Assembly (NCBI RefSeq): GCF_003991155.1
Contig: NZ_CP031293.1
Reading direction: 5' to 3' (one strand)
Length of the DNA: 64,000 nt
DNA from: Escherichia coli
GTDB lineage: Bacteria; Pseudomonadota; Gammaproteobacteria; Enterobacterales; Enterobacteriaceae
Below, piece after piece: positions 518 to 46,940 of the stretch (the first letter of the stretch is position 1; each line of letters begins with the position of its first letter). The notes below the pieces were generated by a model, which was given only the letters and a program-made list of their open reading frames with translations, was not told the DNA's origin and did not search any database. The position numbers and the translations under genes were made by a program.

Positions 518-657
518 ATCAACACCAACCGGAACCTCCACCACGTGCTCGAATGAGGTGTGTTGACGTCGGGGGAAACCCTCCTGTGTACCAGCGGGAT
601 AGAGAGAAAGACAAAGACCGGAAAACAAACTAAAGCGCCCTTGTGGCGCTTTAGTTT
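518..657 (+). ncRNA. ryjA: Possible RyjA-like small RNA convergent with the soxR 3' end
   Basis: Position recalled from K-12, where RyjA overlaps the soxR 3' end on the opposite strand; the region ends in a long perfect hairpin at 624-661. Not verifiable from sequence alone. Confidence 0.3.
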
Positions 658-661
658 TGTT
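624..661. terminator. Long perfect inverted repeat, bidirectional terminator at the soxR 3' end
   Basis: aacaaactaaagcgcc / ggcgctttagttttgtt inverted repeat with a 5-nt loop, flanked by A/T runs. Confidence 0.6.
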
Positions 662-1115
662 CATCTTCCAGCAAGCGTGCGCCTGTGCCTTCTTCTCCTA
701 AGCGGTCGCCCGGGTTACGCAATGGGCAATCACTGCGCGAAAGGCAGCCACAACCAATACATCCGTCCAGTTCGTCACGCAGCGCCACTAAGGTATGAAT
801 GCGCCGATCCAACTCTTCTCGCCATTGGGACGAAAGCTGTTTCCACTCTTTCGCACTTAATGTATGCCCTTCGGGCAACACGCCAAATGCTTCACGAATG
901 GTCGCCAGCGGAATGCCAATACGCTGAGCAATTTTGATGATTGCGACATATCGCAACACATCACGTTTATATCGCCGCTGATTGCCGCTATTACGGACAC
1001 TGGTAATCAACCCTTTGCTTTCATAGAAATGCAGCGCCGATACCGCCACACCGCTGCGTTTCGCCACTTCGCCGGGGGTTAGCAGCGCTTTAATGCGGGG
1101 TAATTTCTTTTCCAT
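651..1115 (-). CDS. soxR: Redox-sensitive MerR-family transcriptional activator SoxR
   Basis: 154-aa ORF; C-terminal [12 protein letters not shown] [2Fe-2S] cysteine cluster; MerR-type HTH; divergent from soxS. Confidence 0.95.
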
Positions 1116-1126
1116 AAATCGCTTTA

Positions 1127-1144
1127 CCTCAAGTTAACTTGAGG
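1127..1144. promoter_or_regulatory. SoxR-binding palindrome in the soxS promoter
   Basis: Perfect palindrome cctcaagttaacttgagg in the soxR-soxS intergenic region. Confidence 0.8.
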
Positions 1145-1200
1145 AATTATACTCCCCAACAGATGAATTAACGAACTGAACACTGAAAAGAGGCAGATTT

Positions 1201-1524
1201 ATGTCCCATCAGAAAATTATTCAGGATCTTATCGCATGGATTGACGAGCATATTGACCAGCCACTTAACATTGATGTCGTCGCAAAAAAATCAGGCTATT
1301 CAAAGTGGTACCTGCAACGGATGTTCCGCACGGTGACGCATCAGACACTTGGTGATTACATTCGCCAACGCCGCCTGTTACTGGCCGCCGTTGAGTTGCG
1401 CACCACCGAGCGTCCGATTTTTGATATCGCAATGGACCTGGGTTATGTCTCGCAGCAGACCTTCTCCCGCGTTTTCCGTCGGCAGTTTGATCGCACTCCA
1501 AGCGATTATCGCCACCGCCTGTAG
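1201..1524 (+). CDS. soxS: AraC-family superoxide response regulator SoxS
   Basis: 107-aa ORF with AraC-type HTH; divergent from soxR. Confidence 0.95.
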   Translation: MSHQKIIQDLIAWIDEHIDQPLNIDVVAKKSGYSKWYLQRMFRTVTHQTLGDYIRQRRLLLAAVELRTTERPIFDIAMDLGYVSQQTFSRVFRRQFDRTPSDYRHRL

Positions 1525-1526
1525 TT

Positions 1527-3113
1527 TTATTGCCCGCGCGTTAACTCCCGCGCGGGTAATTGCTCCATCCATTGCATAAACACCTGCGGCGGCATCGCCT
1601 TCGCAAAGAACCATCCCTGGCAATAGCGCACGCCGCGTTTGCGCAGCCAGTTAACCTGTTCCTCAGTTTCGACGCCTTCAGCGATCGTTTTTAACCCCAG
1701 ACTGTGCGCCAGCTCGATGATGTGTTCCGCAATCAAATGACTGGTTTTATGGGTGGTCAGCGTCTCAACAAACGATTTATCGATTTTCAAAATATCGACA
1801 TTCAATGATTTAAGGTTATGCAAGTTAGAGTAGCCAATACCAAAATCATCAATTGCCACTTCGTAACCAGCCTGGCGGAAAGCCAGAATAATTGGTGTCA
1901 TTTTGTCGACATCAAGAAATGCATGTTCAGTCACTTCAAATTTAATTTGCTGTGGACGCACCGCGTATTGCTCTGTTTTCTGATTGGTTCGCGCTATCAA
2001 CCGTGACGTATGAAAATCGGAGGCCGACAGGTTAATAGAAACATAGCGATCGGCATGTGTTGCCAGGTATGCGCCCAGATCGCGGAAGACATTATCAATA
2101 ACATAATCAGTTACCTGTCCGATCATCCCCTCCTTTTCTGCCAGCGGAATAAACTCTGCCGGATTCATTACTTGCCCCTGCTCACCAGGCCAACGTAACA
2201 ATGCTTCAGCCCCGATACATTTTTCTGTTTTGATATCGATTATTGGCTGGTAATAAAGGCAAAGTTGATGTTTTTCGAGGGCGCGTTGCAATTTGCGTTT
2301 GGGAGACAAATAGTTTTGTCGAATACGTAGCCAGAGTAATAGCAGAACAAGACTCCCCAAAATACCGGCGGGTAACGCAAAAATAAGATGATTATAAAAA
2401 TGCGCTATAAGACGTTGATATGAAGTCGCAACAATGGCCGCAATTGGGCGTTTTGTCGAATAAACTGTCGCATATAAATAGCCATTTCTTTGTACAGTTA
2501 AATCCTTCAAATGAATCAGTGGAGAAAACGTTGCTGCCGAGGCCTCGTTGCTTAACGAGAAAAAGGTTTTCGTTACCGTATCATATACACCCCATTGCAA
2601 TGTCGGATCATCAGACATCACTTCACTCCAGAAGAGAGGGTTGATGACCGCCACATAATTTCCCCGCTGCATATAGGTCATTTTATAGCCAGAGAAAAAA
2701 GGCGTATCGCGGTAATAATAGATAGAAACGTTAGGTTCACGCTTATAATCGGCCGGTGCAATCGTATAGCCGTTTAAAGGCGCTATCAGCGATGAGCATA
2801 AAAAATGGTTATCACGGGCATAGATCAATTCATTAATATAAAGATAGCCACGAATAATATTCAACAATCGCTTTTGATGGGCTGGAGTGCAAACTTGCCC
2901 CTGATAGCGTTCAGCTGCATCGCTCACTAAATCTGCCTGACGAATGACCAGCTCAGATTTATCCAACGCCAGCTGAGCAAAGGTTCGGAGCTGATTATTC
3001 ACTTCTGATTTTGCCCAAAAGAAGGCAATCCATAGCGAAAGAATGATGGGAAAGAGAACTAAAAAGATAATGCCCGGCAACGCCAGTAATTGGTGTCGTG
3101 CACGATGACTCAT
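1527..3113 (-). CDS. pdeC: c-di-GMP phosphodiesterase PdeC (CSS sensor domain + EAL)
   Basis: ORF 1527-3122; ATG at 3113 gives 528 aa; two TM segments flank a periplasmic domain; C-terminal EAL motifs (EALLRW, QPI). Confidence 0.9.
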
Positions 3114-40864: not shown

Positions 40865-41177
40865 AACAATTTCCCTTCATTGAATGAATGGAGATTTACC
40901 CAAAAACATTTCGGGCGGGATCGAGTATACACAACTAAAGCATGCGAATTACGGCGCGGGTAATTAGTGATGGGGTTTTAGGATAATTGGAATGAATATC
41001 AAATATAAGCTTCATCTTATATATAAATAAGATTAAAAATCAAAAAGTTAAAATAAAATCAGAAATAATTAACCTACGTATTTTCCGAAATAAACCGTGA
41101 TTAAAAATCTATTTTAGGATTAACCTCACGGTATGATTTCCGTTAAATCACAGACAAGAGGATTTATCTGATAAAAA

Positions 41178-41205
41178 ATGCCGACATAACGTCGGCATTT
41201 TTATT
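41178..41205. terminator. Rho-independent terminator downstream of pgi
   Basis: atgccgac / gtcggcat hairpin flanked by A- and T-runs. Confidence 0.8.
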
Positions 41206-41217
41206 AAGGTTATTTAA

Positions 41218-43082: not shown

Positions 43083-43104
43083 AATGTACTACCTGCGCTA
43101 GCGC

Positions 43105-43385
43105 AGGCCAGAAGAGGCGCGTTGCCCAAGTAACGGTGTTGGAGGAGCCAGTCCTGTGATAACACCTGAGGGGGTGCATCGCCGAGGTGATTGAACGGCT
43201 GGCCACGTTCATCATCGGCTACAGGGGCTGAATCCCCTGGGTTGTCACCAGAAGCGTTCGCAGTCGGGCGTTTCGCAAGTGGTGGAGCACTTCTGGGTGA
43301 AAATAGTAGCGAAGTATCGCTCTGCGCCCACCCGTCTTCCGCTCTTCCCTTGTGCCAAGGCTGAAAATGGATCCCCTGACACGAG
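43105..43385 (+). promoter_or_regulatory. lysC 5' leader containing the lysine riboswitch (L-box)
   Basis: Long structured leader before lysC containing a GAAGAGGCGC element; the overlapping antisense ORF 43067-43612 is considered spurious. Confidence 0.65.
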
Positions 43386-46588: not shown

Positions 46589-46903
46589 ATGAAACTCAGT
46601 ATCGATTTTTGGGAAGTGATCTCCCTTATGCTTTCCTTCGTTGGATTAATGTTTGCTGCCGGAAAACTGCTGTTAGCACAAATTGAAAAACGACTTAATG
46701 AGCGTTTTGAATCTCTGGAAAACGCGCGCCGGGAATCAGAAACAAGTTGGTCGAAACTGGAAAGAGAATTTCTCGAATTTCGTGCCGAGCTTCCGCTGCA
46801 TTATGTCCGCAGAGAAGATTATCTTCGTGGGCAAGCAGTATTAGAAGCGAAGCTGGATGCCTTATATAGCAAAATCGAGCTGTTACAACGTGGCAGTTAT
46901 TGA
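46589..46903 (+). CDS. Spanin-like protein (N-terminal TM plus coiled coil)
   Basis: 104 aa; TM helix then charged coiled-coil region; follows the endolysin. Confidence 0.5.
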   Translation: MKLSIDFWEVISLMLSFVGLMFAAGKLLLAQIEKRLNERFESLENARRESETSWSKLEREFLEFRAELPLHYVRREDYLRGQAVLEAKLDALYSKIELLQRGSY

Positions 46904-46904
46904 A

Positions 46905-46940
46905 AAATCCCCACCCTTATGTAAGGGTGGGGATTTTTTT
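46905..46940 (+). terminator. Strong rho-independent terminator after the lysis cassette
   Basis: aaatccccaccctta / taagggtggggattt 15-bp stem followed by a T-run. Confidence 0.85.

Follow-up and report, generated by a model that had tools for sequence, protein, structure and literature searches.

Known since 2001, SraL (also called RyjA) has its entry in Rfam and forms part of the annotation of Escherichia coli K-12. Published descriptions present it as a sigma-S-dependent RNA of ~140 nt that is associated with ProQ and Hfq. Induction in stationary phase and chaperone-assisted pairing in trans are features that it shares with SdsR and GadY, which are likewise sigma-S-dependent small RNAs (sRNAs) of enterobacteria, and to our knowledge there is no sequence relationship between SraL and either of them. 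SraL differs from SdsR and GadY in that it is reported to be ProQ-associated as well as Hfq-linked.

In Salmonella, SraL is nearly absent from an rpoS mutant on northern blots, the activity of an sraL promoter-lacZ fusion is RpoS dependent, and anti-RpoS ChIP enriches the sraL promoter >100-fold (PMC3753932). Salmonella SraL acts in trans by base pairing and lowers tig, through a site of 7 bp plus 3 bp that immediately precedes the Shine-Dalgarno sequence and that compensatory mutations have confirmed (PMC3753932). According to two reviews (PMC6582626, PMC12360218), rho is a further target: SraL binds its leader by base pairing and thereby averts premature Rho-dependent termination, probably because a rut site is masked. 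This protection of rho mRNA was shown in Salmonella. ProQ and/or Hfq are involved with SraL (PMC6315103, PMC7237705); a Salmonella Hfq coimmunoprecipitation yielded 0 SraL reads under the condition used. E. coli RyjA has been seen on northern blots, with A as its 5′ nucleotide (PMC12956327), and is polyadenylated, being among the most up-regulated transcripts of a pcnB mutant (+3.84 log2; PMC5389530). The transcript has thus been documented by published northern blots and RNA-seq in both E. coli and Salmonella (PMC12956327, PMC5389530, PMC3753932).

We analyzed a 64-kb stretch of E. coli DNA, referred to here as the window, in which a sequence-only reading had pointed to an inverted repeat at the 3′ end of soxR and had suggested an sRNA, RyjA, that would converge on soxR and end at this hairpin. 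The covariance-model search that was proposed there for RyjA bore the suggestion out. In a scan against all of Rfam, family RF01408 (sraL) matched positions 518 to 658 of the plus strand over model positions 1 to 142 of 142, with 153.3 bits (E value of 5.3e-36) against a curated gathering score of 39 bits. The matched segment is identical at 141 of 141 nucleotides to the K-12 MG1655 ncRNA ryjA (b4459, NC_000913 4277926-4278066), and position 518 is the exact 5′ end of both the Rfam match and K-12 ryjA. MG1655 has the same neighbors, with soxR convergent and the start of the divergent ghxP 413 nt upstream, and shows no difference within the RNA; outside it, the window departs from K-12 by 3 substitutions within 75 nt before the start and by 2 inside soxR. 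We are highly confident that the segment is SraL/RyjA, a free-standing 141-nt regulatory RNA of enteric bacteria. Together with the published transcript, the full-length Rfam match and the K-12 identity uphold the suggestion of RyjA as an RNA convergent with soxR and ending at the hairpin. The object in the window is an already known sRNA in its usual place and with its K-12 sequence. The features of the locus are collected in the table.

Table. Features at the sraL-soxR junction (window coordinates)
Feature	Position	Strand	Basis or remark
-35-like element, CTGGCG	483-488	plus	17-nt spacer to the -10 box; placed from spacing
-10 box TACAAT (506-511) and TAA (512-514)	506-514	plus	7 nt upstream of A518
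sraL/ryjA sRNA gene, 141 nt	518-658	plus	Rfam RF01408 and K-12 identity
5′ domain, closed by helix 1 (519-525/560-566)	519-566	plus	95.4% of cells paired; 4 of 7 pairs compensated
Predicted tig mRNA pairing site, CCACGUGCUCGA	541-552	plus	SraL nucleotides 24-35
Helix 6 hairpin (582-587/594-599)	582-599	plus	94.5% paired; 4 of 6 pairs compensated
Near-invariant, single-stranded A/G-rich segment, GAUAGAGAGAAAGACAAAGACCGGAAAAC	600-626	plus	Candidate seed or chaperone-binding region
Terminator hairpin	627-657	shared by both	13 bp perfect, 5-nt loop
62-aa ORF	445-633	plus	Begins 73 nt before the transcription start
26-aa ORF inside the 62-aa ORF	553-633	plus	Apparent chance frame
soxR coding sequence	651-1115	minus	ORF list; NCBIfam TIGR01950 (SoxR equivalog), 248 bits versus a cutoff of 117

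Within E. coli, 5,400 of the 5,420 complete genomes with a match reach 99% identity or more over the sRNA alone, and only 760 genomes do so over the 501-bp stretch that includes its flanks; by this comparison, the sraL stretch is more conserved than the region in which it is embedded. A split sraL match was seen in ~12 of the 5,420 genomes. PGAP annotation of non-K-12 genomes (e.g., L002, NZ_CP033850.1) lists soxR alone under the match and leaves the sRNA unlisted, and the RNA is likewise unannotated by RefSeq/PGAP in the identical non-K-12 genome that was inspected. As automated RefSeq annotation omits sraL in most E. coli genomes, scans of raw sequence keep rediscovering it, and the locus has little meaning beyond its correct annotation.

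The SraL of Salmonella enterica lies in the soxR/STM4267 intergenic region, and the copy of subsp. diarizonae is 91.6% identical to the RNA of the window. The sigma-S-type -10 box, the terminator core, the tig-pairing sequence CCACGTGCTC, and the convergent soxR are all as in the window. Unlike in E. coli, the end of Salmonella soxR is not in the hairpin arm. A further difference is that repression of tig, protection of rho, and RpoS dependence have been shown by experiment in Salmonella and not in E. coli.

Homologues were retrieved from a collection of species-representative genomes with an exact two-block pattern taken from the RNA, which gave 97 places. Ninety-two of them contain a full-length sraL homologue; the other five (L028, L043, L047, L094, and L095) are chance matches and were rejected. 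Many genera of the Enterobacteriaceae are represented, including Escherichia, Salmonella, Citrobacter, Enterobacter, Klebsiella, Raoultella, Kosakonia, and Leclercia, as well as Lelliottia, Buttiauxella, Cedecea, Shimwellia, Atlantibacter, Trabulsiella, and Yokenella. Comparisons were made in an alignment of 91 sequences (A2), where invariance at positions 530 to 539 and 570 to 580 is forced by the retrieval pattern. A few sraL-soxR loci of the Enterobacteriaceae type carry unexpected labels, namely a Bacillota metagenome-assembled genome (MAG), Chryseobacterium sp. 18061, and “Proteobacteria” MAGs (L030, L066, L009, L018). The sRNA of L030 is 100% identical to that of E. coli, and these entries most likely reflect contaminated or misbinned public genomes.

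Over the 91 sequences, 94.6% of cells in the Rfam structure are paired, and the figure falls to 37 to 52% in controls in which the partners were slid by 1 to 3 columns. Compensatory changes occur at 10 pairs, four in helix 1, four in helix 6, and two in the terminator (helix 7), so that covariation in the alignment speaks for a conserved RNA structure. Helix 3 of the Rfam model is unsupported in the 91 sequences (75% paired, no compensation), and the fold of the whole RNA is only modestly better than that of shuffled sequences (z of -1.94). The A/G-rich segment that precedes the terminator has a high predicted probability of being unpaired, and within it AAAGAC and AAGACCGG show little or no variation among the 91 sequences. 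Like the terminator core, which is also nearly invariant, these nucleotides lie outside the retrieval pattern.

The sequence from 621 to 661 reads GAAAACAAACTAAAGCGCC-CTTGT-GGCGCTTTAGTTTTGTT. The repeat had been described as a perfect one of 16 to 17 bp overlapping the soxR stop; the repeat and the overlap with the stop codon (positions 651 to 653) stood, and the length did not. A repeat finder gave 13 bp of perfect (100%) complementarity between positions 627 and 639 (AAACTAAAGCGCC) and positions 645 and 657 (GGCGCTTTAGTTT), around a 5-nt loop. In minimum-free-energy structures the stem grows to 16 pairs (624-639/645-661) only when T658 is bulged. Read from the plus strand, the hairpin has a predicted free energy of -20.5 kcal/mol (z of -6.6) and, read from the minus strand, one of -22.2 kcal/mol (z of -5.1), with 0 of 200 shuffled sequences as stable in either case. 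The 64-kb window contains only three distinct hairpins with a perfect stem of 13 bp or more and a loop of 3 to 8 nt, and the same definition returned 0 in each of 30 dinucleotide shuffles. The hairpin at the soxR end is real and goes well beyond chance. Among 91 loci, the core of its stem is invariant, and two of its pairs are compensated.

The 3′ end of sraL has the makeup of a Rho-independent terminator, a 13-bp stem with 6 GC pairs followed by a T-run. On the plus strand the U-run is short (655 to 658, UUUU and then G), and on the minus strand the hairpin is followed by GUUUUCC, a weak U-run. A simple terminator scan flagged the plus strand only, since with GUUUUCC the minus strand of the hairpin has 4 T in 8 and fails. 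The arrangement resembles bidirectional intrinsic terminators in that one stable palindromic hairpin stands between two convergent units, preceded by an A-run and followed by a T-run (AAAAC...GTTTT), which places U residues on both strands; it differs from them in the weakness of the minus-strand U-run and the failure of the scan on that strand. The hairpin probably serves both convergent genes, sraL and soxR. A weak minus-strand Rfam match at 627 to 662 (23.7 bits, below threshold) was rejected as the palindromic terminator read backwards.

The two remaining hairpins with a perfect stem of 13 bp or more lie at 17231 to 17260 and 46903 to 46938. Their stems are 13 bp (AAAAGAACCCAAT...) and 16 bp (AAAAATCCCCACCCTT...) long, and A-runs and T-runs flank both; they are probably bidirectional terminators as well.

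Upstream of sraL, a -10 box followed by the A/T-rich TAA, which is typical of sigma-S promoters, and preceded by a degenerate -35-like element would constitute a promoter of this type, and the pattern TAnAnT-TAA is conserved in the 91 loci. Positions A507, A509, and T511 are invariant (91/91), and T506 is kept in 77, T512 in 84, A513 in 89, and A514 in 74 loci. At the -35-like element, the counts are C72, T78, G73, G91, C63, and A58/G32, G486 being the invariant position. The -13C is poorly kept (C in 37 of 91). Silva et al. (2013) marked the -35 and -10 boxes of SraL, in a text that gives no coordinates, and describe this pattern as an RpoS-type promoter (PMC3753932).

Farther upstream, an A/T-rich element is conserved at 449 to 476 (about -70 to -43 from the sraL start; consensus, CGAAAAAATTTCGGCnAAAAAA). 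Several genera have it as an inverted repeat, e.g., GGCGAAA-AAA-TTTCGCC, with changes on both arms, and this palindrome is degenerate in E. coli. The element might be UP-like, a regulator site, or part of the promoter of the divergent neighbor. The start codon of this neighbor, ghxP, was read directly from the sequence at position 105 on the minus strand, independently of any annotation tool, and the 412-bp gap between it and sraL contains GCAAACG(T/A)T motifs clustered at 168 to 376. Two copies are exact (222 to 234 and 265 to 277) and one has a single mismatch (364 to 376); over the whole window the motif is not enriched (25 matches versus 23.6 expected). We presume that it is akin to PurR operator half-sites, which would fit control of the guanine/hypoxanthine transporter gene ghxP by the purine repressor.

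The sRNA gene lies between a convergent soxR and a divergent ghxP/yjcD. It converges with soxR in 91 of 92 homologous loci, and ghxP is divergent from it in 72 of the 72 loci where tblastn found ghxP. In the window, the soxR TAA stop codon sits within the 3′ arm of the hairpin and sraL overlaps soxR by 8 nt, the same overlap as in the K-12 annotation. Among the 91 loci, the 3′ end of the sRNA overlaps the soxR stop codon or lies within 1 nt of it in 51. The overlap amounts to +8 nt in 14 loci (the E. coli group), to 0, -1, +1, or +2 in 34, and to +30 in three Kosakonia-type loci; in the remaining loci a gap of up to 150 nt, and once of 511 nt, separates the soxR stop from the sRNA 3′ end. Such variation across genera argues against selection for a specific antisense overlap, although the convergence of the two genes as such is strongly preserved.

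Just one homologous locus lacks soxR, that of Citrobacter sedlakii NBRC 105722 (L053, 698-1742). There, a 303-aa ORF (698..1609) that looks like a LysR-type regulator by its sequence converges on sraL; its stop codon is the same TAA within the terminator arm, again with an 8-nt overlap. Among the E. coli genomes with a split sraL match, one was examined, strain 405 (L102, 2501-3345). It carries an IS200C of ~0.7 kb (tnpA at L102 2716-3174) inserted in the 5′ arm of the terminator (equivalent to ~629/630), which parts the sRNA body from the soxR stop.

On the other side of sraL, ghxP is found at ~1,090 to 1,330 nt in most loci that have it. In Klebsiella, Enterobacter, Leclercia, and many other genera it is ~0.7 to 0.9 kb farther from sraL than in E. 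coli. The extra space was inspected in one locus, that of Klebsiella pneumoniae ATCC 13883 (L054, 2468-3160), where it holds a 230-aa ORF that by eye is glutathione S-transferase-like. The spacing is 413 to 455 nt in E. coli, E. albertii, and the C. freundii group, indicating that the gene with the 230-aa ORF is absent from them.

Two readings would dispense with an sRNA. In the first, the hairpin is the terminator of soxR only, and the plus strand upstream of it is plain intergenic DNA without a transcript of its own. The minus-strand fold is indeed the more stable one, the soxR stop lies inside the hairpin, and just soxR is annotated by PGAP under the sraL stretch in non-K-12 genomes. This account has to face, however, the 110 nt upstream of the hairpin that fit a structured-RNA model with covariation, a degree of conservation above that of the region with its flanks, a conserved -10 box placed just before position 518, a terminator scan that flags the plus strand and not the minus strand, and the transcript detected in E. 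coli and Salmonella, which includes the identical K-12 sequence; we give it next to no credence. That the region encodes a small protein, in the 62-aa or the 26-aa ORF, is also very improbable. Both ORFs exist in the window, and the central part of their translation looks conserved (DVGGNPPV..RDR.KDKDR), but this apparent conservation of a peptide arises because the nucleotides are invariant at all three codon positions, as expected of an RNA. The 62-aa ORF begins well before the RNA does. Of the 91 loci, only 6 have it intact (55 aa or more, read from the aligned start), and 27 preserve its frame between the aligned start and the TAA stop, which belongs to the terminator stem. Opposite ATG553, the alignment has ATG in 21 loci, TTG in 23, CTG in 32, CCG or ACG in 14, and TAG in 1, and thus a non-start codon in 47 of 91; the 26-aa frame to its stop is kept in only 15 of 91, and direct reading found no Shine-Dalgarno sequence before 553. 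Start, frame, and stop are therefore not conserved together across relatives, and Pfam and NCBIfam gave no match for any overlapping ORF. Judged by their sequences, both ORFs are non-coding chance reading frames, in agreement with the earlier suspicion about the 62-aa ORF, which should not be called as a gene.

A third reading accepts SraL and lets it act additionally in cis on soxR, through a 3′-end duplex of ~8 to 40 nt or through collision of polymerases, so that SoxR levels could be tied to sigma-S activity via RNase III cleavage or transcriptional interference. If true, the pairing of sraL and soxR would be functional rather than historical and would couple an oxidative-stress sensor to the general stress response. 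The near-universal convergence of the two genes across many genera, the proximity of the sRNA 3′ end to the soxR stop in more than half of the loci, and the stability of the hairpin on both strands are in its favor. Against it, the distance between the stop and the sRNA end varies between the extremes of a 30-nt overlap and a 511-nt gap, with no fixed overlap selected; another gene takes the place of soxR in C. sedlakii; IS200C parts the two genes in E. coli strain 405; and a literature search found no report of a cis effect on soxR. We regard such an additional role as unlikely.

The reading that we prefer is SraL as an RNA acting in trans, with a tig-pairing site predicted in E. coli that matches the published geometry. 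The best local duplex joins nucleotides 24 to 35 of SraL to positions -30..-18 of the K-12 tig 5′ UTR (CCGAGCACUGUGA) by 7 + 3 bp, at -16.4 kcal/mol, in a search windowed at 16 nt where a 7-bp match alone is not statistically distinctive. For rho, the windowed search gave several candidates of similar energy, the best one in the leader pairing SraL 34 to 48 with rho -244..-230 over 13 bp, so that no single rho site stands out. Duplexes of the whole SraL molecule with the tig and rho leaders were discarded; they are unrealistic end-to-end pairings, and 55 of 200 and 190 of 200 shuffled sequences, respectively, did as well. Searching the literature for RyjA in combination with RIL-seq gave no result.

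From these elements, we propose the following course of events. Transcription would start at A518 from the sigma-S-type promoter formed by the -35-like element, the -10 box, and the TAA after it, and would stop at the GC-cored hairpin and its U-run, the same hairpin closing the convergent soxR on the other strand. In the folded RNA, a stem would close the 5′ domain, a hairpin would occupy the center, and a long A/G-rich stretch would stay unpaired ahead of the terminator. The RNA would act in trans through short stretches of imperfect pairing, with ProQ and/or Hfq assisting. Pairing just upstream of the tig ribosome-binding site would decrease the mRNA for trigger factor, and pairing with the rho leader would block premature Rho-dependent termination. 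Polyadenylation dependent on poly(A) polymerase I would promote SraL decay. By analogy with Salmonella, we infer that both the tig and the rho interactions operate in this E. coli strain.

Conservation of the tig heptamer GTGCTCG is limited to 21 of 91 species, in the Escherichia, Salmonella, and Citrobacter group, and tig control may thus be clade specific. The A/G-rich segment at 600 to 626 is a candidate seed or chaperone-binding region, and it may serve a more widely conserved role than the tig site. Conceivably, the ancestral seed is this segment and not the tig site, and it may act on a conserved target. A clade-restricted tig site beside an invariant 600-626 segment provides a modest lead to the conserved target of SraL.

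Two other candidate assignments were examined and dropped. A GABA3 match at 1588 to 1639 is noise (21 bits versus a 57-bit threshold), and membership in the REP elements was ruled out, as the literature lists ryjA without a REP or RIT element. Rfam matches above the gathering score elsewhere in the window are a lysine riboswitch at 43104 to 43300 (plus strand, 99.5 bits), the sRNA STnc430 at 41061 to 41209 (plus strand, 85 bits), and the nucleoid-associated RNA naRNA4 at 29228 to 29298 (minus strand, 79.8 bits).
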